Source of the DNA: Candidatus Woesearchaeota archaeon
GTDB lineage: Archaea > Nanobdellota > Nanobdellia > Woesearchaeales > DSVV01
DNA length: 64,000 nt
Direction: 5' to 3'
Assembly: GCA_018303325.1 (NCBI GenBank)
Contig: JAGVYH010000001.1
Coordinates: forward strand, 24,849-88,848
Below, one piece after another: positions 2,141 to 34,342 of this stretch (positions are counted from its first letter, which is position 1; the number at the start of each line of letters is the position of its first letter). The notes under the pieces were generated by a model that saw only the letters and a list, made by a program, of their open reading frames with translations, searched no databases and was not told the DNA's origin. The translations under genes and the position numbers were made by a program.

Positions 2141-3571
2141 ATGGCCAAGATACTTTTTGAACATAAAGGATTAAATTACAAGGTTCCAGGATTACCATAT
2201 GAAAATAAGTTTGAATATGTCCGCCCTATTGTGTTAGATAGTGTTCCAACTATGGATGAACTGGAAAAATTAATTCTTAATTCTGATGTAACAACGTTAG
2301 TCAATCCTTGGACAATTGACGTGTTAAGAGGTTTTAGAGATTATATACCCACTACTTTTATGAGAGTTGCACAAAATATGAATCCTGATGCAATGCAGCA
2401 ATATTTTGGTAGTGATGAAAATTATATTCCGGAGAAAGAAAGAGTCTTGCTTCAATTACAAACAGAAATTGAGGCAAAAGCAGCAACTATTGATGCAGCC
2501 ATTATTCACAAACGAAAAGAATTGGGAACAGTAGTTAACAAAGCTCACATTGCTAATCGTTTATATGTGATAGGCAGATTTTACGGTCATTTAAAAGAAA
2601 GAGAATATCCTTTTTTATTTGGAAATTTATTGGATCCTACAACATGGGATGATGCTCTTTCTCAAATAAAAAGACAATTTATAGAATATATGTTGGAAAT
2701 TCCTGTTGGAAAGAGAAACTATGAGAGGAGAGTACGTAAAATTGATGTGCCAAAGAAAGATATTCAGAAAAGGTTTGTTTATGTTGAATGGCTGAAACAA
2801 AAATTAGGTGATGATTTGGCAGGAGTATTACTTTATGGCTCAGCTGCAAGAACAGATAATCCTGAAGGTTATTCTGACTTTGATAATTGGGTGATGGTGA
2901 GAGATATTGCAAGAGCTCATCAAATTTTAAAGAATACTTGTCCGGCAGTTTATGATGGTAAAGTAATAGAAGCACATAATGATTCAGAACTACCACATGG
3001 AGCCAAGCATTTAGGTATTCATCTTTTCCCTGCAAATGAAGAATATGTAATAAGACATATACGCTTTTTGCATGATCCTAGAGAATTCTTAATGCACACT
3101 AAAGTTTTATTTGGAGAATTCCCTTTCCTTAAAGTTGGTCAGGATGAAGTCATTGAAAGAGGCATATCACAAGCATATATGAAATTAAAAACTATTGCGG
3201 GTTCACTAAACTGGGCATATTTCGCTCCAGAAAGTATTTTGGGTAAACCAAGCTTGTTTGAATTTATAGTTAAAAATGTACGCTTTTTTATTCAGCATTC
3301 ACTTAATGCAACAGAAGGTCCACATTTCAGAGATAAAGATGAATTAAATAGACGGCTTAAAGAGAGAGACCTGCATATTCCGGAATATAAAGAAGACATT
3401 GATTATATTAAAAAATCATTATTATATGCAACTGTTAGTGTTCTGCAACTCCAAAAAGAATTTGTTGATTCAGGAAGAAAACCAAATTTAGATTTCTTAG
3501 TGGATAATCATTTTTATGAATGGAATGATCCTAAAGTAGATAATTGGGAAAGTGCTGCAGCAGATGATTAG
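2141..3571 (+). CDS. Pol-beta superfamily nucleotidyltransferase-domain protein with an approximately 220-aa N-terminal extension of unknown function
   Basis: GS…D.D signature LLYGSAARTDNPEGYSDFDNW. I recognise no other domains. Confidence 0.5.
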   Translation: MAKILFEHKGLNYKVPGLPYENKFEYVRPIVLDSVPTMDELEKLILNSDVTTLVNPWTIDVLRGFRDYIPTTFMRVAQNMNPDAMQQYFGSDENYIPEKERVLLQLQTEIEAKAATIDAAIIHKRKELGTVVNKAHIANRLYVIGRFYGHLKEREYPFLFGNLLDPTTWDDALSQIKRQFIEYMLEIPVGKRNYERRVRKIDVPKKDIQKRFVYVEWLKQKLGDDLAGVLLYGSAARTDNPEGYSDFDNWVMVRDIARAHQILKNTCPAVYDGKVIEAHNDSELPHGAKHLGIHLFPANEEYVIRHIRFLHDPREFLMHTKVLFGEFPFLKVGQDEVIERGISQAYMKLKTIAGSLNWAYFAPESILGKPSLFEFIVKNVRFFIQHSLNATEGPHFRDKDELNRRLKERDLHIPEYKEDIDYIKKSLLYATVSVLQLQKEFVDSGRKPNLDFLVDNHFYEWNDPKVDNWESAAADD

Positions 3572-3937
3572 TAAGTAATAAGTCTGCCAGTCAGCTTTGG
3601 CGAAAACGCGAAAAATGATGCGTAGAAGAACAGCTGAGTTTCCAATTGTTTTCGCTTCCTTTATAGTCTTACGAGACAAAACAGCAAAGCTGACAAATTG
3701 TTTCAGATTAAATGAAAAATTAGTTATTAAGTCAATATTTAATCTGAAACAACAGAATTCCACCAATCATTGGTTTATGGTCGGGTGGGATTCTGTGTGC
3801 TCAAGAACCACCGCTTGATTGGTGTAATTCTGAGCATCAAGAACCACATATTTGTTGTATCATTGTACCATCATGCTACTTAAACCAAAATAGATAAATC
3901 GAGTTAAATTTACAATAGAGGCAGACTTATTACTTAC
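3571..3937. repeat. Composite hairpin element bounded by an 18-bp perfect inverted repeat (gtaagtaataagtctgcc at 3571-3588, reverse complement at 3920-3937). It contains an imperfect-palindrome module at 3582-3700 (family P) and a 'cagattaaatg…atttaatctg' hairpin module.
   Basis: Both arms are read directly from the sequence. The internal module matches the one at 34367-34500 and, in part, 24162-24190. Confidence 0.7.
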
Positions 3938-3964
3938 GATGATTAAAATGTTTCATTTATTTTT

Positions 3965-4936
3965 CTATTGTTGAATATGTGTTAAAAGAGATTTAACTAA
4001 GCCTATTTTCTGTTTTACAATTGTTTCTGCAAGTAGTAATAATGATTTATCTGTTTTAGGAATAGGCACAAAACAAGTATCAACACCGATTTCTTTTAAT
4101 TTAGTATAAACCTTATTGGGATCACCCTTAATTCTTAATGGGTTAAAATTTAAGTCAAATAAGCTTTCTTCATAACCCATGACAAAGTAAATTAAATGAT
4201 GATTAGGAAAAAGAGATTTGAAAGGGTCAAAAACTCTTTCTTCAATTCCATTAGTATGCCTGTTTTTGTTCCATGAATGAAGATTAAATTCTCTCTTAGT
4301 AAATGATTCGCCAATTAAGAGGTATCTCTCATCACCTACGTGAAGATATCCTAACCCATCTATTTCTGTAGAAATCAAACCAAATCGTTCTTGTTGGTAT
4401 GAGGTTACAACATCTGTATGCGTATCTTTCTTTAAGATAACAAAATTACTTACTCCTTTGAAACGAAGAAGATAATCATTATTAAAGCGAGCGATATAAC
4501 CTTTACCTCGATGTTTACGAGGTTCTCTTAAAACACCACTTATTATGTTATTCTCTTTAAAAGAAGATTCTCCTTTTTTTTCTTCTTCATAATGGGAAAC
4601 AACCTGTAAAAAATATTCCATAAGTAAAGAGAGCATTCTTTCACCCATTACTCCTTTAATTCCTCTAACTAGTTCATCTTCAGGAATATCTTGCTCTTGT
4701 TTCTTTTTAGCCCACCACAAAATATCTGTAGCATCATACAAAATAGTAGTAATCCCACCAATAGTAACACTTACACACTCACCTTCTGATAAGTCATGTA
4801 ATTTAGCTGATGGTAAAAATAAATGTGAAATGCTTAAATAGTCTTTTTCACAAGAATGAGATTCGTCAACCAACGTATCCAATGCAGGACAATATCTTCT
4901 TGGGATATACTCTGCAAAATGGTTCACTGTGTCCAT
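3965..4936 (-). CDS. hypothetical protein
   Basis: A 323-aa ORF convergent with the NTase gene. It has no recognisable motifs. Confidence 0.45.
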   Translation of the reverse strand: MDTVNHFAEYIPRRYCPALDTLVDESHSCEKDYLSISHLFLPSAKLHDLSEGECVSVTIGGITTILYDATDILWWAKKKQEQDIPEDELVRGIKGVMGERMLSLLMEYFLQVVSHYEEEKKGESSFKENNIISGVLREPRKHRGKGYIARFNNDYLLRFKGVSNFVILKKDTHTDVVTSYQQERFGLISTEIDGLGYLHVGDERYLLIGESFTKREFNLHSWNKNRHTNGIEERVFDPFKSLFPNHHLIYFVMGYEESLFDLNFNPLRIKGDPNKVYTKLKEIGVDTCFVPIPKTDKSLLLLAETIVKQKIGLVKSLLTHIQQ

Positions 4937-5039
4937 CTAAACTGCGAATAGTTATGGATATAAAAACATTTCCATTGTTTTTTGCTCTTGTTTTTTCCAA
5001 AAAATAATTTTATAATAAATAGTTATATAGTAAGTAACT

Positions 5040-5400
5040 TAAATTATTGTACATCTCGTGTTACTTACTATATATACTAAAAGTCCTTAGCTTCCGAACA
5101 AAAAACAAGGACTTTTGTATATACAAATGGAATTAGTTTGTTCGAAAACTAATTCCATTTAGTATATAACAAACACAGTAACTTTCAGTAATATAGCAAA
5201 CCACAAACATCTTATCCATTTAGTTGTGGTCTGCTGAATATTCAACCAACAAATTTATACTTAACTATTGGTTGGTTGAATATAACTCGTTGTGTTTGTT
5301 ATATTGAACGAACTAAACAATATTGATAAGTAGTTTTAGTTCGTTAGCTATTCGTGGACTTTAAGTAAATGGATAAAGATATTAAAGTCCACCACTATAT
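5040..5400. repeat. Cluster of at least five different hairpin modules, including a 'tatactaaaagt' double-hairpin element at 5071-5168 and a 'ggactttaa' hairpin at 5353-5398
   Basis: The inverted repeats are read directly. The same module families recur elsewhere in the window. Confidence 0.65.
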
Positions 5401-5429
5401 TTATAAAATCCTGAAATTATCTGTTAATA

Positions 5430-6221
5430 ATGCAAATCTTCAAAAACATTGAAATTATTGACCTCTGCCTATTTCTAACGAAATCAAAAACTTTGGTTAT
5501 TCCAGACGTTCATATTGGATATGAAGAAGCATTAAATAAACAGGGCATTCTTATTCCAAGAACACAGTTTAAAGAAATAATGATTAACATCGAAAAGATA
5601 ATAAAAGAAGTAATATTTAGGTTTAATAGTATTAACCAGATAATAATTCTTGGAGATTTAAAGCATGAATTCGGCAGGATTTCAGAGACAGAATGGAGAC
5701 AGACATTAAGGTTTCTTGATTTTCTTTCTAAATTCTGCAATAACATTATTCTCATCAAAGGAAACCACGATACAATTCTCGGGCCAATTGCAAAAAAAAG
5801 AAATTTAGAGATAGTTGATAATTGTTTAGTTGATGATATACTTTTTGTCCACGGCGACAAAATACCGACAGAAATTTCAAAACAAACAAAAACAATAATT
5901 ATTGGCCACGAACATCCAGCAATATCACTTAAACAAGGTCCACGGGTAGAGAAGTACAAATGTTTTTTGAAAGGCAATTGGATAATGAATAAAAAGATAA
6001 TAAGTAAATTGGAAAAATACGCATTTAAAGAGCAGAGAATATATAATCTGATTGTAATGCCTTCTTTTAATCCGTTAATTGAAGGTACAGACATTCTCAA
6101 AGAAGAGTTATTAAATCCTTTGCTTAAACAAGCAGACATAGGTAAACTCGACGTTTTTATTGTAGGGGATAATGTTTATAATTTCGGAAAGATAAAAGAA
6201 ATAGTTAAACATATGAAATGA
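5430..6221 (+). CDS. SbcD/Mre11-related calcineurin-like metallophosphoesterase (archaeal short form)
   Basis: Metal-binding motifs GDLKHEFG, GNHD and GHEHP. Confidence 0.65.
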   Translation: MQIFKNIEIIDLCLFLTKSKTLVIPDVHIGYEEALNKQGILIPRTQFKEIMINIEKIIKEVIFRFNSINQIIILGDLKHEFGRISETEWRQTLRFLDFLSKFCNNIILIKGNHDTILGPIAKKRNLEIVDNCLVDDILFVHGDKIPTEISKQTKTIIIGHEHPAISLKQGPRVEKYKCFLKGNWIMNKKIISKLEKYAFKEQRIYNLIVMPSFNPLIEGTDILKEELLNPLLKQADIGKLDVFIVGDNVYNFGKIKEIVKHMK

Positions 6222-6286
6222 AAAAATGAATTAATAAAACAAGTTAATAAGATAAATAGAATAAATAATAAAGCAAAAAAACAGGA

Positions 6287-6394
6287 TTACAATGACTTTT
6301 TGACTCTCTTTCTCTTTTCTTTCTTCATTCTCTTACGCTGCCATTTCCATCTCATTTGGCCTTTTTTCTTCCATCTTCTCGAACTTCTTTTCAT
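6287..6394 (-). CDS. Tiny lysine/arginine-rich protein that resembles ribosomal protein L41e (35 aa: MKRSSRRWKKKGQMRWKWQRKRMKKEKRKRVKKSL)
   Basis: I translated it by hand. A GAGGT-like motif lies upstream and the composition resembles L41e. It falls below the ORF-table length cutoff. Confidence 0.35.
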   Translation of the reverse strand: MKRSSRRWKKKGQMRWKWQRKRMKKEKRKRVKKSL

Positions 6395-6561
6395 TTAGCA
6401 TACCTCGGTTGTTAAGTTCTTTGTAAAATCAATCATTAATTGATAATTAGATAAGTGGGTATATAATCTATTTATAAATCTTTTGTTCAACGAAATATTT
6501 ATAAACTCGTATAAAATCTTCAGATTAAAGATTAAAATTAGGGTGATAAGGCTAACTAATC

Positions 6562-6707
6562 GGGCCCGTAGCTTAGCCTGGAGAAATTAAGCTTAAAATA
6601 AGACTATTTCAGGCAATGGAGCACTGCTCTTATATGACTGTGCTGCATACAAAAAATAGCACTCCTATGATAAGCAGGGGTCGTGAGTTCGAATCTCGCC
6701 GGGCCCA
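6562..6707 (+). tRNA. tRNA gene with multiple introns (acceptor GGGCCCG/CGGGCCC, T-arm GTGAG-TTCGAAT-CTCGC). The isotype is not resolved; the anticodon may be UAU.
   Basis: The acceptor and T-arm are canonical. About 70 nt of extra sequence lies between the D-arm and the T-arm, which fits an intron at 37/38 plus a non-canonical intron. Confidence 0.6.
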
Positions 6708-6997
6708 TTTAGATTACATTTAATTAATGACCAGCGAATACTCAGAAACAAGCGGATACTCAGAGAAAAATAGATAATGTGACCGAGCAACGAAGTTGCG
6801 TAGGTCGCATGATTTTTTCCGAGGTTTTGATAAAAAGCTCGTGGGAATCTCGCCGGGCCCATTTAGATTACAGTTAATTAATGGCTAGCGAATACCCAGA
6901 AAAAATAGATTATGTGACCGAGCAACGAAGTTGCGTAGGTCGCATGATTCTTTTCCGAGGTTTTGATAAAAAGCTCGTGGGAATCTCGCCGGGCCCA
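6708..6997 (+). repeat. Two tandem units of about 140 bp. Each ends by recreating the tRNA 3' terminus (gaatctcgccgggccca) with a degenerate T-loop, and each contains a GCAAC-GAA-GTTGC hairpin.
   Basis: Direct comparison of 6719-6861 with 6862-6997. The 17-nt tRNA 3' end occurs three times (6691-6707, 6845-6861, 6981-6997). Confidence 0.7.
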
Positions 6998-7183
6998 TTT
7001 TTAGCTCATTTAGCTTTAAATAGTTAGGTTATAATTAGTTTATACACAATTATATAGTAAGTGACGTAAATTTTTATACAAATCGTGTCACTTACTCTAT
7101 TTGTCGGACATAACAAATGTATAACTATTTATGTCCGACATTATAATAAATTTATATATTACTAATAAAATCATGTTCATATT

Positions 7184-7317
7184 GCCTCGGTAGTGTAGTC
7201 CGGCCCATCATTTTGCCCTTTCGAGTTTTATTGAATAGGCAAAGAAAGGCAAAGACCCGGGTTCAAATATTCCAAAGGAGATCAAATCCTTCGGATTTGA
7301 AAGTCCCGGCCGAGGCA
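7184..7317 (+). tRNA. tRNA with introns, including a 36-nt intron at the T-loop/T-stem junction. The likely anticodon is UUC (Glu), with a 13-nt intron at 37/38.
   Basis: Acceptor GCCTCGG/CCGAGGC plus A. T-arm CCGGG-TTCAAAT-[intron]-CCCGG. Anticodon stem TTGCC/GGCAA with loop CTTTCG|A. Confidence 0.55.
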
Positions 7318-8385: not shown

Positions 8386-10497
8386 TTAATAATTCTTAAT
8401 CAAGCTTTCAATAACTTCTTCCTTCCATCCTGCTTTGATTAATGCTGATTTAATTGACTCTTTTGGCATACCTTTCGCAGTATAATATCTGATATAATTT
8501 AATATTTGTTCACGCTCGTTTTTGTCCATAAACATTGCGTTATATTTTGTAAACAATTGCTGGATTGTGGGTTTATCCCAGCCTAAATTAATTAGCTGAA
8601 CAATGACTTGGTCTTTTGTCAGCCCGTTTTCTAACTGTGACTCAACATAATTAACAAAATTCTGTTCTATTGCCGATGTTTGCTGCGCAAGCTGCAGCGT
8701 CATTGGCTGAGCGAACATCGCTGACTGAACATTTTGGGGTTTTGTTTGCTGCATAGCCATATTATTTTGCTGTAAAAAACTAGGAGATTGCATAGAGGTT
8801 GTGTCTTGTTTTGTTGGTTGAGTTGTCTGATTTGTTGTTTGATTTGTTGATTGACTTCTTAATGCAAGCTCTCGTTTATGCATAAAAATTAATGAAGCAA
8901 TTAAACTTCCAATTAAAACAAATATAACAACACCCCACCAGTATGTTTTTCCTTTTGCTAATATGCTTATATTAGGTTGTTTTGTTAACGCTTTTCCAAC
9001 AACACCTTTTTCTGCTCCAAATTTTTGTTCTTGCTTCTGTTGTTTGGATGCAGCCATTTGTTGTGTTTGCTGCTGCGAAAATGTTAATTCTTCTGATGGC
9101 TCTGATGGTTCTAGCGCAGATTCATCATAAGTTTGTTCGCCGGATAAATCATTAATTTCTTCTCCACCAGCTAAACCATCCGAAGCAATTCCTTCAGGAG
9201 GTAACTGTCCTGATAATTGTTGTGTTGATGGAACCGATGGTTGTTGTAAGAAAGGTGGTTGTTGCAATCCTGTTTGTTGAGGTGGTGTTCCTTGTTGTTC
9301 ATCTTCTTCATAATCTTCTTCTTTATATCCTGCAGGCTGGCAAACGCCCATGCTGCTGCATACATAATTTTTTGCGCATTTATGCTGCTCATCGCATTGT
9401 ATACAGATTAAATAGTCTTGACTGCAAAACATTCCTGTTGTGCATTTAGTGTTGTCTGGTTCTCCATTATCATTCATGCAATCAATAATATCTAAATCAC
9501 ATATTCCTTCAAAACATAAAAACCCTTGCTGGCAATCTGCAGGTGTTTGCTCTGAGCAGGATGTTTTGCATTTGCCTGTATTGTCACAAGCAAAACCTGC
9601 TGTGCAGTCTTTTGATTGTGTTGATATGGTACATTCTGGCGTTGGAATAATTGGTGGTGGTGATGGTGAAGGAAGAGTTGAACCTAAAAGATTAGATGCT
9701 GATGCTGGAATAGTTTTGGCTAGTGGTGGTGTAGTTGGCGTGGAAACACATTCGCCTGTTGCTTTATTGCATATTTCATTTTCTGCGCAGTTTAAATCGT
9801 CAGTACATCCTAACGGTGTTTCGCAGATGCCTTCGTTGCATATCTCTCCTTGTGCGCAGGCAGGAACACATTCTGTCGGCGACAGAGGAACAGGAACACA
9901 TACATTATTCTCGCAGGTTTCTGTTTCTTCGCAGGCAGGAACACATTCTGTCGGCGACAGAGGAACAGGAACACATACATTATTCTCGCAGGTTTCTGTT
10001 TCTTTGCACGCAGGAACACATTCTATCGGCGACAGAGTAATTGAAGACACGCATATATTATTCTCGCAAGTTTCTGTTTCTTTGCACGCAGGAACACATT
10101 CTGTCGGCGACAGAGAAATAGGAACACATACATTATTCTCACAGGTTTCTGTTTCTTCGCAGGCAGGTGTACATTCTATTGATTGTGTTACAACATCTTC
10201 AACACATACATTATTCTCGCAATGCTGCCCTTCAATACATTCTGGAGTACAGCCAGTAAGAGTTTGTCCTTGTGTTCCGTCTGTTCCTTCTTTCGGCGCA
10301 TTCTCAGCACATATACTATTCTCGCAGTGCTCATTCACCCCGCAATCTTCATCTGCTTGGCATACTTCTCCAACTGCCTTTCCAAAGAAATCTTGGTTTA
10401 ATGTGCTAAATAAAAAGACAGAACTAACTAGTATAAGGATAATAGTAAGATATATTGCTATTTGCAATGGTTTTGTGAGCTGGATTTCTTTTGGCAT
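8386..10497 (-). CDS. Secreted Cys-rich surface protein: signal/TM, five tandem Cys-rich modules, a Thr/Pro/Gln-rich stalk, a TM helix, and a conserved cytoplasmic tail
   Basis: The N-terminal hydrophobic segment, the repeated ECVPACxETETCENNxCVP modules, the TM YWWGVVIFVLIGSLIASLIF, and a tail homologous to the tails of the 1574-aa and 2260-aa proteins. Confidence 0.7.
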   Translation of the reverse strand: MPKEIQLTKPLQIAIYLTIILILVSSVFLFSTLNQDFFGKAVGEVCQADEDCGVNEHCENSICAENAPKEGTDGTQGQTLTGCTPECIEGQHCENNVCVEDVVTQSIECTPACEETETCENNVCVPISLSPTECVPACKETETCENNICVSSITLSPIECVPACKETETCENNVCVPVPLSPTECVPACEETETCENNVCVPVPLSPTECVPACAQGEICNEGICETPLGCTDDLNCAENEICNKATGECVSTPTTPPLAKTIPASASNLLGSTLPSPSPPPIIPTPECTISTQSKDCTAGFACDNTGKCKTSCSEQTPADCQQGFLCFEGICDLDIIDCMNDNGEPDNTKCTTGMFCSQDYLICIQCDEQHKCAKNYVCSSMGVCQPAGYKEEDYEEDEQQGTPPQQTGLQQPPFLQQPSVPSTQQLSGQLPPEGIASDGLAGGEEINDLSGEQTYDESALEPSEPSEELTFSQQQTQQMAASKQQKQEQKFGAEKGVVGKALTKQPNISILAKGKTYWWGVVIFVLIGSLIASLIFMHKRELALRSQSTNQTTNQTTQPTKQDTTSMQSPSFLQQNNMAMQQTKPQNVQSAMFAQPMTLQLAQQTSAIEQNFVNYVESQLENGLTKDQVIVQLINLGWDKPTIQQLFTKYNAMFMDKNEREQILNYIRYYTAKGMPKESIKSALIKAGWKEEVIESLIKNY
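9790..10210. repeat. Intragenic tandem repeats of about 75 bp (five units) that encode the Cys-rich modules
   Basis: Near-identical DNA units are visible (…ggaacacattctgtcggcgacagaggaacaggaacacatacattattctcgcaggtttctgtttctt…). Confidence 0.8.
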
Positions 10498-10648: not shown

Positions 10649-11185
10649 TTATAGCAATTTCTTCATCTCAAATACAAATCCTTTTGCTCTCTCCAAAGAG
10701 GTTACTGCTTTGCCTTGTTTTGCCTGCTCATCCATTTGGTATTGAAATTTTGAGCGTTTTTCCCGCTCTTCATCAAGAGATTTCAACAAGGCATCTGCTC
10801 GTTGAGACATTAATTCCATTGCATCTTCTTGGGCATTTTCATATTCTTCCAATAGGTTTTTCTTGAGTTTATCTCGAACAAAAACAATAATTGCATCTGC
10901 TGTTACTTTATGGCTAACCTTATCTCCTACTTTATATCCTAAATTCAATAGAACAGCATTGGCAATGTAATACATTGAATAGTATGAAGCAACAATTACC
11001 CAAAGAAAAGGGTGATATTCTTTACTTTCCAATGCAAGAAGTTTTTTGGCTGTTTCCAAAGAAATATCAGCATTCACTATATACATTGCTTTGGCAGTTT
11101 CATTTGTCTGTTTCTTCAGCAGACTATCTTGTAGATACTGCCTTACATTTGACTCCGCTTCTTTAATACGTTTTTGGTCAAGCAT
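10649..11185 (-). CDS. HEPN-domain protein, the toxin-like partner of a HEPN/MNT module
   Basis: Helical protein of about 180 aa. Its start overlaps the stop of the upstream MNT gene by 8 nt. Confidence 0.55.
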   Translation of the reverse strand: MLDQKRIKEAESNVRQYLQDSLLKKQTNETAKAMYIVNADISLETAKKLLALESKEYHPFLWVIVASYYSMYYIANAVLLNLGYKVGDKVSHKVTADAIIVFVRDKLKKNLLEEYENAQEDAMELMSQRADALLKSLDEEREKRSKFQYQMDEQAKQGKAVTSLERAKGFVFEMKKLL

Positions 11186-11753
11186 TTTTCAGTTTATAGT
11201 AAGTTTCAATTCCATACAAGATTATATTATTTTCTATTGCCTCTTGTATTACATTTGAGGTTTTGGAATCTTTCATCCGTATAAATTCCTCTTCTGTAAA
11301 TACCAAAACATGAGTGTTTAGAGGAATTAAAGAGAGAATATCTGAAATTTTAGGTTCAAAATTGCTCTCATTAGATATAAATAAGATGTCAATATCAGAT
11401 GAGGTTGTTTGTTTACCTTTTGAATAAGAACCAAATAAAAGTAAGGTAAACAAACTTGTTTTTACTTTTGACATAATTTCTTTGTAGAGTTGGTTAATAT
11501 TCTTGTTTTTAAGGATGTTTTCTCTTCTTTCATTTTCTGCTTCATAAATTTCAATGCAGTAACACTTTTCGTTTAATTCACATAAAGAGCTTTTTCCTAC
11601 TGTTTGAACTTTGAGAACCTTTTTTTCGATGAGTCTTTGTACTGCGGTATAGGTTATTCTATAATCTGCTTTAATTTGTTTAGCAATTTCTCTAATTGTT
11701 TTTGGTTTTTTGTTTCCGATAAAATGCCTAACTATTTTTAGCTCTGTTTTCAT
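11178..11753 (-). CDS. Minimal nucleotidyltransferase (MNT) with an N-terminal wHTH, the antitoxin-like partner of HEPN
   Basis: Motif LLLFGSYSKGKQTTSSDIDILFIS, an N-terminal HTH (TIREIAKQI…), and overlap with the HEPN gene. Confidence 0.7.
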   Translation of the reverse strand: MKTELKIVRHFIGNKKPKTIREIAKQIKADYRITYTAVQRLIEKKVLKVQTVGKSSLCELNEKCYCIEIYEAENERRENILKNKNINQLYKEIMSKVKTSLFTLLLFGSYSKGKQTTSSDIDILFISNESNFEPKISDILSLIPLNTHVLVFTEEEFIRMKDSKTSNVIQEAIENNIILYGIETYYKLKNA

Positions 11754-21385: not shown

Positions 21386-21943
21386 TTATTTTGCATCATT
21401 AATGTTTCCATTACCACTTCCAGAGCCAGTTCCACTTCCAGTAAATTGTGACAAAAGAGGATTCATACAATCTACACATACTTCTAAACTAACTGATAAT
21501 TGTTGTGTAGTAGTGTCATAAGATCCAACTATTAGTTTATACCATACACCATTATATAAAAATGTGTTTTCACTATTTGGTTCAACATTTGTAAGCATAT
21601 TATTTTGGTCTAATGTTATTTGTGTCGCCTTCCCCACCACCACATCACCATACTTCACCAACATCAATACACCTAATAGTATTATCAGTATCAGCGCAGC
21701 ATACAGGAATATTCCCCAGTAATGTATCTGGGTTTGCGGATTGGTAACGCTTACTGGTGTTTTGGGCGCTTTTGATTTGGTTTGCGCTCTTGTAAAGCTT
21801 ACTGAGGTTTTGGGCGCTTTTATTCGAGTTTGTTGATTAACGCTTAATGGAGTTTGTGGCGCTGTTATCTTGGTTTGTTTAGAAAGATTTAATTTCTTTA
21901 CTTGTGTTTGTTTTATTTTAGCCTTTTTTAGTATAATATTCAT
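21386..21943 (-). CDS. Small N-terminally anchored secreted protein ending in a Gly/Ser tract and NDAK; paralogue of 16585..17046
   Basis: C-terminus TGSGTGSGSGNGNINDAK. TM YWGIFLYAALILIILLGVLML. The N-terminus is Lys/Thr/Pro-repeat rich. Confidence 0.55.
   Translation of the reverse strand: MNIILKKAKIKQTQVKKLNLSKQTKITAPQTPLSVNQQTRIKAPKTSVSFTRAQTKSKAPKTPVSVTNPQTQIHYWGIFLYAALILIILLGVLMLVKYGDVVVGKATQITLDQNNMLTNVEPNSENTFLYNGVWYKLIVGSYDTTTQQLSVSLEVCVDCMNPLLSQFTGSGTGSGSGNGNINDAK
21629..21922. repeat. Direct repeat, copy 1 (294 bp), covering the 5' half of gene 21386..21943. Copy 2 lies at 23717..23962.
   Basis: Near-identical sequence. Copy 2 lacks one 48-bp internal unit. Confidence 0.85.
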
Positions 21944-22121
21944 TTATTTTATTTATTCATTTATATATCTTTTTATTATTTTTTTTAATTTTTATATTAC
22001 TTCATTGTATTTCTGGCATTAAAAGAGGGTATCAATAAAAATTTACGTCACTTACTATACATACAAAAACAACCGAAAGATTTATATATTATATGTAATA
22101 AACATTACCTATTAAGTATTA

Positions 22122-22922
22122 ATGATGACAAAAAAAACAAGAAAAGGATTAGGAGAGAAATCTGCGATAGTATTATCTACACTCTCTGAAAAAAACAAGA
22201 ATATCTTTAATGTAGATGATGTTGCAGCGATTCTTCATGAGAAAAGATCGTCAATAATTAAACTTCTTCATGATTTAACTAAGAAAAGATGGCTTTTTCG
22301 CATAAGTAAAGGAATATATCTTATTCTCCCATTAGAAGCTGGGGCAATGCCAAAGTTTACTGAACATGAATTTATACTTGCATCCAGACTAATTTCACCA
22401 TATTACATCTCTTATTGGTCAGCTCTGAATTATTATGGCTTAACTGAACAGGTCTCCAAAACTATTTTCATCGCTACACTTAAAAGAAAATTAGAAAAGG
22501 AAATAATGGGATTAAAATTCAGGTTTATCACCCTCAACAAAAATAAATTTTTTGGATTCAAAGCGATGCAGTTAAACAATCATATTATCAAAATCGCAGA
22601 AGTAGAAAAAGCTATTATTGATTGTTTGGATTTGCCTCGAAATTGCGGGGGGATAGTTGAAGTAATTAAAGCTATTGATGAAGCTAAAAAAGAAATAGAT
22701 TTTAATAAATTAATAGCTTACGCAAAAAAAATGCAGAATGCAGCAATTCTTAATCGTTTGGGATATATATTAGAATTATTAGGGATTAAAGCTAATATAA
22801 AGCCAAGCAAACATTATGTTATGCTTGATACTATCAGTAAAAAGAAAGGAATATATAACAAAAAATGGAAAATTGTTGAGAATGTTTCAAGGGAAGAACT
22901 ATTATCTTGGAGGGAGCATTAA
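22122..22922 (+). CDS. abiEi: AbiEi-family antitoxin/transcriptional regulator (type IV TA)
   Basis: The architecture and size fit, it overlaps the downstream AbiEii gene, and it is similar to the other two AbiEi-like ORFs at 32838 and 61752. Confidence 0.6.
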   Translation: MMTKKTRKGLGEKSAIVLSTLSEKNKNIFNVDDVAAILHEKRSSIIKLLHDLTKKRWLFRISKGIYLILPLEAGAMPKFTEHEFILASRLISPYYISYWSALNYYGLTEQVSKTIFIATLKRKLEKEIMGLKFRFITLNKNKFFGFKAMQLNNHIIKIAEVEKAIIDCLDLPRNCGGIVEVIKAIDEAKKEIDFNKLIAYAKKMQNAAILNRLGYILELLGIKANIKPSKHYVMLDTISKKKGIYNKKWKIVENVSREELLSWREH

Positions 22923-23713
22923 TGATACCTCTTGCTGAACTAAAACGGATTGCTGCTAAGAATAGTGTAGCTTTAAGTGTAGTTGAGAAAGATTATGCGA
23001 TTACATGGATATTATATGCTTTGGCAGAAACAATGTTCAAAGAGTGTTTTATTTTTAAAGGGGGTACTGCATTAAGAAAAGTATATTTCCCTGCATGGCG
23101 CTACTCTGAAGATTTAGATTTTACAGCAACTAAACTTTTGAATGAAATAGAAGTTAAAGAATTAATTAGCTCAGTTAATTACTATCTTTATGAAAAAATT
23201 AAGATGAGTATAACATATAAATCTTTGTATCTTAATCCAGAATATGCTCAGCTTAAAATTCAGTTTTTGGGACCATTAAATCGCGAAAATACTATAAAGC
23301 TAGATATCAGCTTTAGTGAATTCCTAGTTTTGCCACCAGAAAATAAGCTTATCCACTCAGAATATTCAGATAAAGAAAAACACTTCTTGTATGTTTATTC
23401 ATTGGAAGAAAGCTTAGCAGAAAAAATTAGAAGTATTTTACAGCGAGGAAAAACAAGAGATTATTATGATGTATGGAGAATATTAAAGTGGCATTATAAG
23501 TTGATAAATAAAACAAAAACCAAAGAAATTTTAAATCAAAAGTGCAAATTCAAAAATATTATATGTAATGAAAAACTTCTTTTTGGCCAAGAAAAAGTGG
23601 ATAATGCAAAAAAACATTGGGAAAAAGGATTAGGATACCAAATTAATGATTTACCAGATTTTGATATTGTTATAACTGAATGTAAATACTTACTAATGCA
23701 ATTTTTGAAGTGA
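22907..23713 (+). CDS. abiEii: AbiEii/AbiGii-family nucleotidyltransferase toxin
   Basis: Motif FKGGTALRKVYFPAWRYSEDLDF. Confidence 0.75.
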   Translation: MEGALMIPLAELKRIAAKNSVALSVVEKDYAITWILYALAETMFKECFIFKGGTALRKVYFPAWRYSEDLDFTATKLLNEIEVKELISSVNYYLYEKIKMSITYKSLYLNPEYAQLKIQFLGPLNRENTIKLDISFSEFLVLPPENKLIHSEYSDKEKHFLYVYSLEESLAEKIRSILQRGKTRDYYDVWRILKWHYKLINKTKTKEILNQKCKFKNIICNEKLLFGQEKVDNAKKHWEKGLGYQINDLPDFDIVITECKYLLMQFLK

Positions 23714-23716
23714 CCT

Positions 23717-23962
23717 CTTCCCCACCACCACATCACCATACTTCACCAACATCAATACACCTAATAGTATTATCAGTATCAACGCAGCATACAGGAATAT
23801 TCCCCAGTAATGTATCTGGGTTTGCGGATTGGTAACGCTTACTGGTGTTTTTGGCGCTTTTGTTCGAGTTTGTTGATTAACGCTTAATGGAGTTTGTGGC
23901 GCTGTTATCTTGGTTTGTTTAGAAAGATTTAATTTCTTTACTTGTGTTTGTTTTATTTTAGC
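23717..23962 (-). pseudogene. Duplicated 5' fragment (promoter-proximal region and N-terminal codons, but no start codon) of the 185-aa NDAK-protein gene; copy 2 of the direct repeat
   Basis: About 95% identical to 21629-21922. It diverges just before the ATG. Confidence 0.7.
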
Positions 23963-24118
23963 ATTTTATTTATTTATTTATATATTTTTATGTTATTTTT
24001 CATTCTTCATAGTTTTGGCATTAAAAAATGATACTAAATAGAAATATTTAAATAATAGTATGCATTCATACTGCATAATTTACATAAAAAGTATGCAGTG
24101 GTGATTTTGGGGATTATA

Positions 24119-24158
24119 TATTCACTTACTGAATATTTAATTATTCACTTAGTGAATA
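24119..24158. promoter_or_regulatory. Pair of 17-bp palindromes (tattcacttactgaata and tattcacttagtgaata) downstream of the ATPase gene. A matching pair sits at 25639-25669 just upstream of its start codon.
   Basis: The palindromes are read directly from the sequence. Four sites in all bracket the gene in inverted orientation. Confidence 0.7.
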
Positions 24159-24161
24159 TAT

Positions 24162-24190
24162 AGCAAAGCTGACAATTTAAGAGCATGCCC
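24162..24190. repeat. Partial (3' half) copy of the imperfect-palindrome module, family P
   Basis: agcaaagctgacaatttaagagcatgcc matches the 3' arm of 34367-34500. Confidence 0.55.
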
Positions 24191-24205: not shown

Positions 24206-25630
24206 TTATTGCCTTCTCAGCTCTTTTGCCATATCCTTTAGGTCAAATAAAAGAACATTTTTCTGCCCAACTTTTTTCTTAAATGATTTTGCAATGATGC
24301 AAAAATGCTCTTCCCGTTTATTTTTATGCCAGTTTACATAAGCAGATTTCTCTTTCAATTGTTTCAATATTTCTTCTGCGTCTACATTCTCTTTCCATTT
24401 GCATTCTACAAACAGTATTTTGCCCTGCTTTGAAACACCCAAAAAATCAATTTCTATTTCTTTTCTCTCATCCCATTCACGCTTATATCCCCACCAATTG
24501 CTGAGATATTCAATAGTGAATGGCAGTTTTTTATTTGTGTTAAGATGAATAAGAAACTCCCTGCATATCTCTTCAAATCTTCGCCCAAAAAAAGCATTAA
24601 ATTGGTGCGTTATATTTTCAATTAATTGCTCAGTATTCTGCAATGAATAATAAGAAAACTGGTCATAGACAAAAACAAACCAAAATTCTATTAATGGGTG
24701 ATTCAGAAAATACCTTGTGTTTTTTTTGTTATCTATTGGTTTTACTGATTTTATTAAGCTAAATCTCTCTTCAAGCTCGCGCAAATGCCTTGTTATTGAG
24801 CTTTCTTTCATATGAACATTGCTGGCAATTTCATTTAATTTTGCTTTTCCTACAGCAATAGAATGGATTATAGAATAATATAAAGAGCTGCGTTTACCAA
24901 ATTCCTGTTTAAGAATATCACTAACTTCTGTTCCAAGGGGAGCGTTTTCTTGTATAAACAAATATTTGATGACACTGGCATAGTCTTTATCAAACAATTC
25001 AAACTGTTCCATAGCAGCATAATACTTAGGAAAACCGCCAAATATGCCGTAAATCCGCAGCATTTCAGCAAAATTTTTATATTTTAAAATCTGAAGTGTT
25101 TCAATGCTGTATTGGAGGGTAAACGGCTGCAGGTTTATTTTTGCTGATATTCTTCCGTAAAGAGGCTGTTTCTTATCCTCAAATATCTTTCTAAAGAGCC
25201 CAATAAGCGAGCCGAGCATGATCAAATTCAAAGGAGTTTCTTTGTATTCATCGCAATTCTTTTGAAGTATTGAGAAGACTGTTTTGTCCGCATTCTGAAA
25301 GTTTTGAAATTCATCAAAAACAATAACATATTTTTTGCATCTTGTGAATATTACCTCAAAAAAAGTATACCATGAGGTGATTGCTTCAAGAGGAGCAATA
25401 ATCTTTTGTTTCCTCAATTCTTCGCTGAATTCTCTAAGAAGTTCTAACGATGTTTTTGAGTCATAGACAAAGAAATAAAGTGCTTTCTTGTCTTTGATAA
25501 ACTCTTTTATCAATGTTGTTTTTCCTACTCTTCGCAATCCAGAGACTGCTACTGTAAAAAGCCGCTTTTGTGAAAAGCTGTAATATTCATTTAATATCTT
25601 CAATTCCTGTTTTCTATTTATGAATTTCAT
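24206..25630 (-). CDS. AAA+ ATPase of the archaeal ATPase (Arch_ATPase plus DUF234) family
   Basis: Walker A VSGLRRVGKTTL, Walker B IVFDEFQN, and a C-terminal DUF234-like region. Confidence 0.7.
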   Translation of the reverse strand: MKFINRKQELKILNEYYSFSQKRLFTVAVSGLRRVGKTTLIKEFIKDKKALYFFVYDSKTSLELLREFSEELRKQKIIAPLEAITSWYTFFEVIFTRCKKYVIVFDEFQNFQNADKTVFSILQKNCDEYKETPLNLIMLGSLIGLFRKIFEDKKQPLYGRISAKINLQPFTLQYSIETLQILKYKNFAEMLRIYGIFGGFPKYYAAMEQFELFDKDYASVIKYLFIQENAPLGTEVSDILKQEFGKRSSLYYSIIHSIAVGKAKLNEIASNVHMKESSITRHLRELEERFSLIKSVKPIDNKKNTRYFLNHPLIEFWFVFVYDQFSYYSLQNTEQLIENITHQFNAFFGRRFEEICREFLIHLNTNKKLPFTIEYLSNWWGYKREWDERKEIEIDFLGVSKQGKILFVECKWKENVDAEEILKQLKEKSAYVNWHKNKREEHFCIIAKSFKKKVGQKNVLLFDLKDMAKELRRQ

Positions 25631-25638
25631 AGATATAT

Positions 25639-25669
25639 ATTCACCTACTGAATATTCAGTTAGTGAATA
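25639..25669. promoter_or_regulatory. Two overlapping 17-bp palindromes (tattcacctactgaata and tattcagttagtgaata), 9 bp upstream of the ATPase start codon
   Basis: Read directly from the sequence. Confidence 0.7.
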
Positions 25670-25752
25670 TTTATAAAGTTTTCTGTTTTATATGATTTTA
25701 ACGTTAAGATGCCACTCTTCCTTTCCCAAACACATCATTAATTATCTCCTAT

Positions 25753-32837: not shown

Positions 32838-33443
32838 GTGATAGTAATGGGCAAGATAATTAAGATTTATGAGGCATTACTTAATAGAAAAGAAAAGGTG
32901 TGCCACAGAACAGAAGTAGTTGAAATAATAAAGGAATATAATAAAAACCTAGGCCATATTGACTGTGAAAATACTTTAAAATATCTTTCAAGGCATAATT
33001 ATATAAAAAGAATTTTTCTAAATTTTTATTATGTAAATTCTTTGGATGAAAGAGAAAGGAAGTTTTGCAGCTATGAAGATAAAGAACTTCTGTTTACAGT
33101 ACTTAACGGGCTTGGCATAAAATGGTATGTTGGCCTAAATTCATCTTTATATCTTCTTGGGAAAATATGGCAGACACCAAGTGTTTTATCAATAATTAAT
33201 GATAAAATAAGTGGAAGGAAAAAAATATTAGGTTCGAATGTAAGATTTATGAAAATCAAAAGCAGCCTTATTTTTGGGCTTAAAAAAAATAAAACGAAAC
33301 ATAATATAATTTACTGCTATTCAGATTTAACAAAAACTTATCTTGATTTTGTTTATTTTAAAATATCAAAAAAACAGATAAATACAAAGGAAATAGGAAA
33401 ATATCTTAAGAGGTATCCTACTTGGTTCAAAAAATTAATATAA
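32838..33443 (+). CDS. abiEi: AbiEi-like antitoxin (short form)
   Basis: It sits upstream of an AbiEii gene and overlaps it. Its size and HTH-like N-terminus fit. Confidence 0.5.
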   Translation: MIVMGKIIKIYEALLNRKEKVCHRTEVVEIIKEYNKNLGHIDCENTLKYLSRHNYIKRIFLNFYYVNSLDERERKFCSYEDKELLFTVLNGLGIKWYVGLNSSLYLLGKIWQTPSVLSIINDKISGRKKILGSNVRFMKIKSSLIFGLKKNKTKHNIIYCYSDLTKTYLDFVYFKISKKQINTKEIGKYLKRYPTWFKKLI

Positions 33444-34342
33444 ATAAATATGTTGCAGATGTCAAAAAAAATCTTTGTATAGAAGCCCCGGATGAAATAG
33501 TTGAAAAAGATCTGTTGTTGACTCTGATTCTTGCTGAGTTTGAAAAAAGAAAGTTGGAAAAAGAACTGATATTTAAAGGAGGCACTCTTTTGTCAAGAAA
33601 CTATCTGAACTATCATAGATTTTCAGAAGACTTGGATTTTGTTCATAAGGACTCTAATAAATTGCGTGAATTAAAAAGAAATACGCGTGAAAAAAGAATC
33701 AAACAGTTTATAGATTATTTCGTTCCTGAATTAAAAGAAGTTGCAAATATATTAAATTTAGAATTTAGTACAGACAGAAGCAACACAAGATTTTGCACCA
33801 TTCTGCATGGAAGGGTTATTTATATTTTTAGGATTTATTATTCTGAAAATAATTTTATAAAAATTGAAATAAATTTTGTTGAAAAAATAATACACCCCCC
33901 TAAAAGAGTTTCAATAAAAGCGATAACGGACTTTTTTGATTCAAGAGAACTTTTATTTACTCTTGGCCTGAAAATTGAAAATTTTGTTGTTATGAGTTAT
34001 ACTTTAGAAGAAATAGTTCTCGAAAAATATCGTGCAATACTCACAAGAAGCGAGCTTAAGGAACGCGACCTTTTCGATCTTTTTTTAATAAAAAACATAT
34101 TTAATCCTAATATAAACCAGATAGTAGAAAAGATTAAGTGTTCCTCTTTGATAAGGAGAAATCTTAATATTATGATTAAGGAGAAACTCTTACTTCTTGA
34201 AAAAAATGAATTTTTCAGGAGTGATGAGAAAATAGAATATTTGACTATTATTCAGTATAATAAAATAGATTTTGAAAACTTAAAAGAAAAGATTAAACCA
34301 ATATTAATAGAAATTTGCAAGAAATTCTTGGAAATGTATTAA
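33422..34342 (+). CDS. abiEii: AbiEii-family nucleotidyltransferase toxin
   Basis: Motif IFKGGTLLSRNYLNYHRFSEDLDFV. Confidence 0.75.
   Translation: MVQKININKYVADVKKNLCIEAPDEIVEKDLLLTLILAEFEKRKLEKELIFKGGTLLSRNYLNYHRFSEDLDFVHKDSNKLRELKRNTREKRIKQFIDYFVPELKEVANILNLEFSTDRSNTRFCTILHGRVIYIFRIYYSENNFIKIEINFVEKIIHPPKRVSIKAITDFFDSRELLFTLGLKIENFVVMSYTLEEIVLEKYRAILTRSELKERDLFDLFLIKNIFNPNINQIVEKIKCSSLIRRNLNIMIKEKLLLLEKNEFFRSDEKIEYLTIIQYNKIDFENLKEKIKPILIEICKKFLEMY

Follow-up and report, generated by a model that had tools for sequence, protein, structure and literature searches.

We analysed a 64,000-nucleotide stretch of DNA from a Candidatus Woesearchaeota archaeon (assembly GCA_018303325.1, contig JAGVYH010000001.1, positions 24,849 to 88,848), referred to here as the window. 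Within it, the genes abiEi and abiEii of a putative AbiE toxin-antitoxin (TA) pair form a small cassette between two direct copies of the promoter and 5' end of a surface-protein gene (Table 1). The window encodes an archaeal set of proteins (HMG-CoA reductase, HMG-CoA synthase, thiolase, aIF5B, and Lhr), and the identical AbiEii protein is labelled "Candidatus Woesearchaeota archaeon" in NCBI. A preliminary description of the locus had reported a direct repeat of 250-295 bp around the cassette and had read it as the footprint of a cassette gained, or losable, by recombination.

AbiEi scored 31 bits against the Pfam family AbiEi_1 (PF09407, cutoff 22.2) and matched the PADLOC model over its full length (2.1e-84, residues 9-263). 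Its N-terminal match to PF13338 reached 20.5 bits, which is under the cutoff of 25. AbiEii matched PF08843 with 118 bits (E = 6.8e-34, cutoff 22.5) over profile positions 1-234 of 238, and the PADLOC match was also full length (3.1e-74). The antitoxin gene comes first, and its stop codon TAA (22920-22922) shares one nucleotide with the ATG of abiEii (22922). Four motifs of AbiEii are needed for GTP binding and toxicity, namely hG[G/S]x15DhD with an arginine (I/II), K...R (III), and +DxxD (IV) (Dy et al. 2014, PMC3985639). In the protein of the window, motifs I and II are intact, with FKGG(47-48) followed after 15 residues by D64-L-D66 and with R60. Motifs III (K168, R170, R175) and IV (R179-D180-Y-Y-D183, RDYYD) are intact as well, and the motif residues are invariant in 25 homologues. 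Both genes are thereby assigned to the AbiE family by all sequence criteria tested. The cassette leader contains an imperfect palindrome, ATTACCTATTAAGTAT, at 22104-22119 between the TATA-like box and the ATG; in the related loci L064 and L068, this palindrome is perfect (ATTACTTAnTAAGTAAT). AbiEi and AbiEii are the only open reading frames (ORFs) between the repeats, and the ORF list, Pfam, and PADLOC gave no recombinase, integrase, or transposase there.

The gene from which the repeats are built encodes an anchor protein with a Lys-rich N-terminus, one transmembrane (TM) helix, and an ectodomain of ~85 aa. Proteins of 526-1008 aa have N-termini that match its anchor and first ectodomain. On the minus strand, it is followed by genes for a 683-aa membrane protein, a PMT-type mannosyltransferase (PMT), and a GT2 glycosyltransferase. 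The gene of a 2260-aa beta-helix/laminin-G surface protein lies upstream of the inserted genes. The surface-protein gene is a mosaic: its anchor is closest to protein P0149, but the nearest relatives of its ectodomain are P0150 and P0153. Anchor module and ectodomain seem to differ in their history. A word-indexed search with the anchor protein returned nothing beyond itself and the copy-2 fragment, and an exhaustive HMMER search was needed to recover P0149 and the outgroup described below.

Alignment of the two copies and a 42-mer probe, which has exactly two sites in the window (21632 and 23720; 0 expected from 100 shuffles), confirm that the cassette is enclosed by long direct copies of the promoter and 5' end of the gene. 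The coding parts are near-identical (~99%), with 2-3 substitutions and one 48-bp indel at ~21775-21822. This indel corresponds to one 16-aa unit of a KAPKT-type tandem repeat and, being bounded by a 15-bp internal repeat, is ascribed to ordinary slippage or unequal exchange. The 48-bp difference between the copies and the start of copy 2, 4 nt past the TGA of abiEii (23711-23713), had been described correctly, as had the coordinates of the repeat; the length of 250-295 bp falls short. Similarity continues for ~100 bp into the promoter region, to ~22045 in copy 1 and ~24035 in copy 2, with an identity of ~92% that drops to ~70% and includes a 15-bp indel. Overall, the duplicated segment comprises ~450 bp, from ~105 bp upstream of the ATG through codon ~111. 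Its left boundary (21629/23717) lies directly after GTGGTGGTGGGGAA, the codons for VVVGK.

Table 1 Features of the AbiE locus in the window and repeat-bracketed AbiE pairs at other loci (coordinates of the other loci refer to the respective locus)
Feature	Position	Strand	Remarks
Membrane-anchored surface-protein gene 'NDAK'	21386-21943	-	185 aa in the window; authentic protein 192 aa, as in L001
Repeat copy 1, coding part	21629-21921		Starts after the missing 50-bp block (codons 1-15); extends to ~codon 111, includes TM helix and KYGDVVVGK
Extra 48-bp (16-aa) unit	21775-21822		Copy 1 only; bounded by 15-bp internal GTTTTGGGCGCTTTT repeat
Repeat copy 1, upstream part	21922-22045		TATA box and promoter region; nearer to the outgroup than copy 2
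Cassette leader	22046-22121	+	Left junction region, AbiE promoter (TATA-like box 22081-22094), palindrome
abiEi, antitoxin/transcriptional regulator	22122-22922	+	Pfam AbiEi_1, PADLOC AbiEi
abiEii, nucleotidyltransferase toxin	22922-23713	+	263 aa from ATG; Pfam PF08843, PADLOC
Right junction	23712-23718	+	GACCTCT, remnant of codons 4-6 of a third gene; CCT/CT microhomology to the repeat
Repeat copy 2, coding part	23717-23961		Minus-strand ORF of 103/114 aa in the population
Copy 2 promoter, then ancestral far-upstream flank (~24040-24100)	23962-24100		Homologous to L211 352-411
Downstream paired 15-bp palindromes ATTCACTTASTGAAT	24115-24166
ATPase_2 + DUF234 ATPase	24206-25630	-	Full-length match to PADLOC defence candidate PDC-S27 (1e-52)
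Upstream paired palindromes	25634-25677		Overlap the ATPase ribosome-binding site and promoter/TATA region
L143, bracketed AbiE pair	2219-5754		690-bp repeat including a whole NUDIX-like gene
L198, bracketed AbiE pair	2540-5278		413-bp repeat, part of an EndoIII/MutY-like gene
L155, bracketed AbiE pair	2585-5340		371-bp repeat of an upstream region
L145, bracketed AbiE pair	2449-5143		254-bp repeat
L126 and L162, bracketed AbiE pairs	39-2234 (L126), 2896-5148 (L162)		Repeats are a tRNA gene or tRNA 3' end
L077 and L096, bracketed AbiE pairs			REP-like hairpin repeats

Exact-protein look-ups led to 43 loci from groundwater metagenomes of different samples, for which no fewer than four assembly methods had been used (IDBA-type scaffolds, MEGAHIT, SPAdes, and Logan). 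Other assemblies of this groundwater population contain at least 20 independent contigs in which the layout of the window recurs. The start-codon site of copy 1 is covered by 11 distinct records, and the coding part of this copy is identical to that of the window in 11 records besides the window. Four of the records over the start-codon site, including L001, cross from abiEi through the complete surface-protein gene to the 683-aa gene, whereas copy 2 is spanned, from the ATPase gene to abiEii, by 14 records. The arrangement is constant, with the full gene always beside abiEi and the short ORF always between the ATPase gene and abiEii, and the two copies can be told apart by their diagnostic markers and flanks. 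Many other contigs stop at the points where a two-copy repeat forces a de Bruijn graph to break: Logan contigs reach 30 nt into the repeat, and a set of MEGAHIT k141 contigs extends ~141 nt beyond a copy-specific SNP. Because spanning and repeat-broken contigs come from several assemblers and samples, the repeat is real and fixed across samples. A cassette-free arrangement was found in none of the population records, although short-read graphs could not have revealed one, given that the identical stretches common to both copies exceed k.

Apart from two gaps, the window agrees with the population assemblies at 100.000% identity over more than 30 kb. It is without 50 bp after 21921 and without 73 bp after 23961; the 50-bp block is carried by all 11 copy-1 records and the 73-bp block by all 14 copy-2 records. 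The corresponding junctions of the window, TTTTATTTTAG|CCTTTTTTAG and TTTTATTTTAG|CATTTTATT, occur in none of these 11 and 14 records, respectively. Both gaps share their left end, at the same repeat position. No microhomology was found at the ends of the two deletions, so that an origin by slippage is not supported; assembly error, curation error, or a rare allele may account for them. The missing blocks contain the ribosome-binding site (GGTGA) and the ATG of both copies. In the surface-protein gene, the block carries AAAGGTGATTTC-ATG-GCA, a strong archaeal ribosome-binding site followed by the start of a 192-aa protein (MAKKDVKS...). As this block is present in the other assemblies, the authentic gene encodes 192 aa, and the 185-aa start of the window (MNIILKK) is a by-product of the deletion. 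An exact look-up of the 185-aa ORF returned no record. In the population, TATA box, ribosome-binding site, and ATG are all present in copy 2, and its ORF encodes 103 aa from MAKK (114 aa as called). It consists of the N-terminus, the TM helix, and a 7-residue tail, RSLQKLH, and overlaps the 3' end of abiEii by ~21 nt. The earlier view of copy 2 as a dead fragment lacking a start codon holds for the window sequence alone, since the 14 other records keep the ATG, and in the window, copy 1 has lost its authentic start, too. In practice, two small deletions within the repeats had removed the true starts and misled the reading of both gene copies, which should serve as a warning.

The outgroup locus L211 belongs to another Woesearchaeote (GCA_016205905.1) and carries P0149, a protein of 526 aa that was found with HMMER. 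The N-terminus of P0149 is 100% identical at the amino acid level to the repeat module over the TM helix and KYGDVVVGK, and the DNA is 82-88% identical over promoter, ribosome-binding site, and anchor. In L211, paired palindromes, a spacer, the far-upstream segment, promoter, GGTGA, ATG, anchor (VVVGK), and ectodomain follow each other in a single copy, which is the only one in the 10 kb examined. Neither AbiE nor the ATPase lies between the homologous flanks there. Homology of the far-upstream segment (L211 352-411) is confined to the flank of copy 2 (~24040-24100), the gene body continues only from copy 1, and copy 1 matches L211 only from 408 onward (~22045 in the window). Promoter identity to L211 is 87% for copy 1, which lacks the 15-bp deletion, and 82% for copy 2, with 18 gap positions. 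As the single arrangement of L211 joins the flank of copy 2 with promoter and anchor, these alignments show an ancestral state with one promoter and anchor, of which ~450 bp were duplicated around AbiE (~22046-23716). Homologues of the 683-aa protein are at most 40% identical, and for this reason, they provided no close empty site. A first scan of GTDB genomes with this neighbour protein found no relatives, and the locus of its 99%-identical variant P0003 was not found. In distant relatives, a giant surface-protein gene directly precedes the 683-like gene, and neither AbiE, ATPase, nor anchor gene lies in between.

The closest relatives of AbiEii (67-69% amino acid identity) reside in unrelated genomic contexts in other Woesearchaeota, and the cassette DNA is homologous to L046 and L049 over 22089-23692 with 70-71% identity. 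These closest relatives have a three-gene operon with an ATGA overlap, in which AbiEi and AbiEii are followed by a 320-aa double helix-turn-helix (HTH) protein. In both L046 and L049, the third gene (5789-6751) has a 4-nt overlap with abiEii, and its product contains two AsnC/HTH_24-type domains; AbiEi-AbiEii-HTH may be a three-gene AbiE variant of Woesearchaeota/Nanoarchaeia. In the window, the third gene is cut at GACCTCT, where CCT/CT forms a microhomology to the target. On these grounds, the right junction is an illegitimate join and not a site-specific one, and the AbiE module is foreign and truncated, made up of the first two genes of the operon and ending about six codons into the third. 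The earlier reading of the cassette as an insertion is supported by this comparison: the single module of L211 is contiguous with the flank of copy 2, ~70%-identical AbiE DNA occurs in unrelated contexts, and the right junction cuts a gene that the relatives retain.

Several classes of mobile DNA were considered for the cassette and rejected. The only candidate for terminal inverted repeats (TIRs) was a 7-bp match, GTCACTT/AAGTGAC, near the ends. With no transposase and a duplication of hundreds of base pairs, a transposon or insertion sequence does not fit. An integrase-mediated island was dismissed as there is no recombinase between the repeats and the right end is not an att core. An integron gene cassette was likewise discarded; the cassette ends 3 nt past the abiEii stop, which leaves no room for attC, and no inverted-repeat pair was found at its 3' end. 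At the left junction, we noticed a perfect 25-bp match, ATAAAAATTTACGTCACTTACTATA, between 22035-22059 and 7053-7077 on the opposite strand. The latter copy lies in the spacer just past tandem tRNA-end repeats (see below) and is half of an inverted repeat, AGTAAGTGAC...GTCACTTACT. The match may represent a shared element end or an operator.

The neighbouring ATPase gene had been described as TIR-bounded and the locus as an insertion hotspot. Its flanks consist of paired 15-bp palindromes that double as a ~45-bp direct repeat around the gene. The palindrome ATTCACTTASTGAAT has nine matches in the window against 0.6 expected, and seven of the nine are strand readings of the four sites in the ATPase flanks. 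L211 has one palindrome region (148-180); its flank on the left corresponds to the DNA upstream of the ATPase, and its flank on the right to the DNA downstream of it. Because of this single region with both flanks, the ATPase gene is taken to be a second inserted cassette, bracketed by a duplicated target of ~45 bp. The absence of the ATPase from L211 and its position between these repeats speak for the hotspot. A reading as TIRs of a transposon is not supported; the paired palindromes, which are also direct repeats, look operator-like and are probably operator sites. Similar ATPases (AAA_14/DUF4143) break up the corresponding glycosylation cluster of L044 and, in L211, are found close to the surface-protein genes.

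We surveyed 160 fetched loci encoding AbiEii relatives for direct repeats of at least 45 bp tightly around a complete AbiEi/AbiEii pair. In a first count, 11 of 92 non-redundant loci were bracketed, compared with 0.42 expected from a sliding-interval control. Restricted to tightly spaced adjacent pairs, bracketing was found for 11/81 AbiE pairs (~14%) and for 2/55 neighbouring control pairs from the same loci. The bracketed loci (examples in Table 1) occur in Dehalococcoidia, Halobacteria, and others, and their repeats are heterogeneous. No cassette ends were conserved between genomes, and the AbiE loci of Dehalococcoidia are homologous only in the two ORFs. AbiE pairs often reside in repeat-bounded islets, with neither a single mechanism nor an AbiE-specific process demonstrated. 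The window itself contains a second, distant AbiEi/AbiEii pair (32838-34342) on the other side of the 2260-aa gene, whose toxin is 27% identical to the first; no bracketing repeats were found around it.

A truncated foreign module, one microhomology junction, the lack of a recombinase, and an intact operon together favour an illegitimate event. We consider it probable, with some reserve, that the founding event was a microhomology-joined duplication-insertion of a horizontally acquired AbiEi/AbiEii module. The module would have entered the leader of the surface-protein and glycosylation operon in antisense orientation, either by template switching or by repair of a staggered break. About 450 bp of target would have been duplicated with the insertion, and the operon would have kept its promoter, ribosome-binding site, and first gene in copy 1. 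Copy 2 would then be a second promoter with an N-terminal anchor stub that reads convergently into abiEii. Afterwards, the coding parts would have been held at ~99% identity, most simply by gene conversion, and the upstream region of the stub would have decayed. Homologous loop-out of the repeats is plausible; it would return the locus to its ancestral single copy and set free a circle of the cassette and one repeat, and the TA/defence function of AbiE would penalize such a loss.

Several observations weigh against this duplication-insertion. The identity of the copies is uneven: it is 99% in the coding sequence but drops from 92% to 70% in the upstream part. This is not the profile expected of a simple recent duplication, which has to be supplemented by gene conversion or selection; in fact, every model needs an addition for 99% coding identity next to 8-30% upstream divergence, and gene conversion is the most likely one. 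The left junction is fuzzy (~22033-22046). The left boundary of the repeat lies within 1-2 nt of the point where nucleotide similarity between the gene and P0149 ends (L211 ~751), a coincidence that a random breakpoint does not predict. The event is reconstructed from an outgroup that is 82-88% identical and whose gene differs downstream of the anchor, and neither a cassette-free allele nor a closely related empty site was found among the population records and relatives. Finally, the enrichment of bracketed AbiE pairs over like-for-like controls is suggestive only (Fisher p = 0.07).

A Campbell-type integration is possible as well, at clearly lower probability. A circle of the cassette and one ~450-bp copy, excised in another strain by recombination between such repeats, would enter a cassette-free cell, where one homologous crossover with the resident promoter and 5' part of the gene would integrate it; this may allow recombinase-free but homology-dependent spread among related strains. 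Repeat-cassette-repeat is the exact product expected of such a crossover, the ATPase shares the layout with its 45-bp repeat, and at other AbiE loci, the bracketing repeats consist of local host sequence and vary widely in length. The repeats of contigs L013, L017, and L018 are hybrids, in which markers of copy 2 on the left are combined with the flank of copy 1 on the right, and 30-nt terminal overlaps of L017 yield a cyclic path of the cassette and one repeat. However, hybrid contigs need no new k-mers, since the identical stretches of up to ~210 nt exceed every k used. We set these contigs aside as evidence for an excised circle, as they are equally expected as graph-walk artefacts. Moreover, the first repeat-flanked copy would still require an earlier illegitimate event, the right junction is that illegitimate join itself, and the cassette-free recipient allele was not observed.

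Homology-facilitated illegitimate recombination is a further model, which we regard as unlikely. Here, a donor with AbiE upstream of an anchor promoter would have supplied a fragment (third gene-AbiE-promoter-anchor-683/PMT) that was anchored by downstream homology and joined illegitimately at its other end, right after the recipient anchor; the recipient ectodomain would have been replaced, and the two copies would be donor and recipient orthologues. This agrees with one microhomology-based junction, with the gene mosaic (anchor near P0149, ectodomain near P0150 and P0153), with a repeat boundary at the anchor/ectodomain border where nucleotide similarity to L211 ends, and with the 8-30% difference of the upstream parts. 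The coding parts, however, are only ~1% apart, which is unexpected for strain orthologues with 8-30% promoter divergence. Two events would be needed, and no donor-type haplotype was detected, all assemblies being 100% identical through 683/PMT. A tandem pair of paralogous anchor genes, in which AbiE later replaced the body of the upstream paralogue, is very improbable. Anchor-type surface-protein genes do form a family with variable ectodomains, but only one copy is present in the 10 kb of the outgroup examined, neither a third copy nor another family member from this population turned up in the protein search, and the left end of the cassette would have to coincide with a paralogue boundary. 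That the repeat is a chimeric or collapsed assembly is hardly credible. The preliminary description had named such an artefact as the outcome that would overturn its reading, and the window does have two local defects within the repeats (the missing 50 and 73 bp). Yet, the 11 records over the start site of copy 1 and the 14 across copy 2 come from four assembly types and different samples and have copy-specific markers and flanks, which refutes the artefact for the repeat as a whole.

With the AbiE type IV TA and abortive-infection system, the locus shares a bicistronic operon with the antitoxin first, a DUF1814 toxin (a nucleotidyltransferase of the DNA-polymerase-beta type) with motifs I-IV, and an AbiEi regulator, which in this system is a COG5340 protein with an N-terminal winged HTH and a C-terminal antitoxin domain (PMC3985639). 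The imperfect promoter palindrome may correspond to the inverted repeats that AbiEi binds there for autoregulation; AbiE stabilizes mobile elements (PMC3985639, PMC11062541). It differs in its archaeal host and in the loss of the third, double-HTH gene of its relatives, and the system is known here from sequence. Integrative elements in tRNA or protein genes duplicate the end of their target gene and leave an intact gene and a displaced fragment as direct repeats. The intact target at one end, the partial copy at the other, and direct repeats around the insert are found here, too, and among the related AbiE loci, L126 and L162 have repeats of the tRNA type, but the locus has no integrase, its microhomology join lies in a truncated cargo gene, and its repeat is ~450 bp of promoter and 5' sequence instead of a short att core. 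Translocatable units of the IS26 type are circles of cargo and one repeat copy. Similarly, the cargo between the direct copies could loop out with one copy and re-enter beside a resident copy; in contrast to IS26, the repeat is ordinary host sequence without a transposase, and movement would need host homologous recombination. In mycoplasmas, direct repeats around a different TA pair were reported as recombination scars, and AbiE is cited within the vpma surface-protein locus (PMC8562856). A TA cassette in a minimal genome, beside surface-protein genes and between direct repeats, is common to both cases; the organisms are unrelated, and here the outgroup shows that the repeat is the duplicated target promoter and 5' end. 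In a bacterial laboratory system, foreign DNA is reported to integrate without homology or recombinase via microhomology joints, as proposed for the cassette. From its sequence, the locus most resembles the gene-end duplications of integrative elements and the direct-repeat scars of TA pairs in minimal genomes, and its kind is already known.

Other parts of the window contain further repeats and gene pairs. Giant surface-protein genes alternate with TA and defence pairs in the window and likewise in L044, L045, and L211; one example is an NTP_transf_2 nucleotidyltransferase with a 178-aa protein (10649-11753) after a 1574-aa laminin-G protein. ARAGORN and Rfam detected no RNA genes in the window. 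By eye, 6563-7000 holds a putative intron-containing tRNA (GGGCCCGTAGC...TTCGAATCTCGCCGGGCCCA) that both programs missed. Its 3' end with ~30 nt occurs in three tandem copies (~6688-6708, 6844-6862, and 6980-6998; units 95.7% identical), which resemble stacked att sites left behind by integrated elements. At ~7187-7310, there is a second split tRNA-like sequence. Intergenic repeat families of 50-125 bp with 80-92% identity are dispersed over the window (41205-41295/53505-53597, 50161-50259/53879-53979, 53664-53758/62466-62560, 3573-3696/34360-34484, and 8191-8259/44157-44088) and could be promoter/terminator modules or miniature elements. In the gene of a Cys-rich 703-aa protein, ~75-bp tandem repeats (9855-10179) differ in one other assembly, L002 (96.9% identity, 4 gaps); their copy number is either variable or hard to assemble.

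The locus provides an outgroup-polarized example in which a DPANN archaeon with a tiny genome would have gained a defence cassette within an operon and kept the operon. Two adjacent cassettes with the same footprint, together with ~14% of AbiE loci being bracketed, hint at a common recombinase-independent route of gain and loss. Taken jointly, small defence cassettes such as AbiE and the PDC-S27-like ATPase might spread without recombinases, and the locus might be both a landing pad and a site of module swapping; as a whole, we regard this reading as speculative and rather unlikely. If it were true, such cassettes would move between related DPANN archaea, and perhaps beyond them, as units that combine the cargo with a single copy of a host segment, by way of long target duplications. 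The duplicated unit would be a portable promoter and membrane-anchor module, and its boundary (VVVGK, G-rich tract) would be a point at which ectodomains are switched between genomes. The toxin-antitoxin pair would then stabilize the repeat-bounded structure against loop-out.

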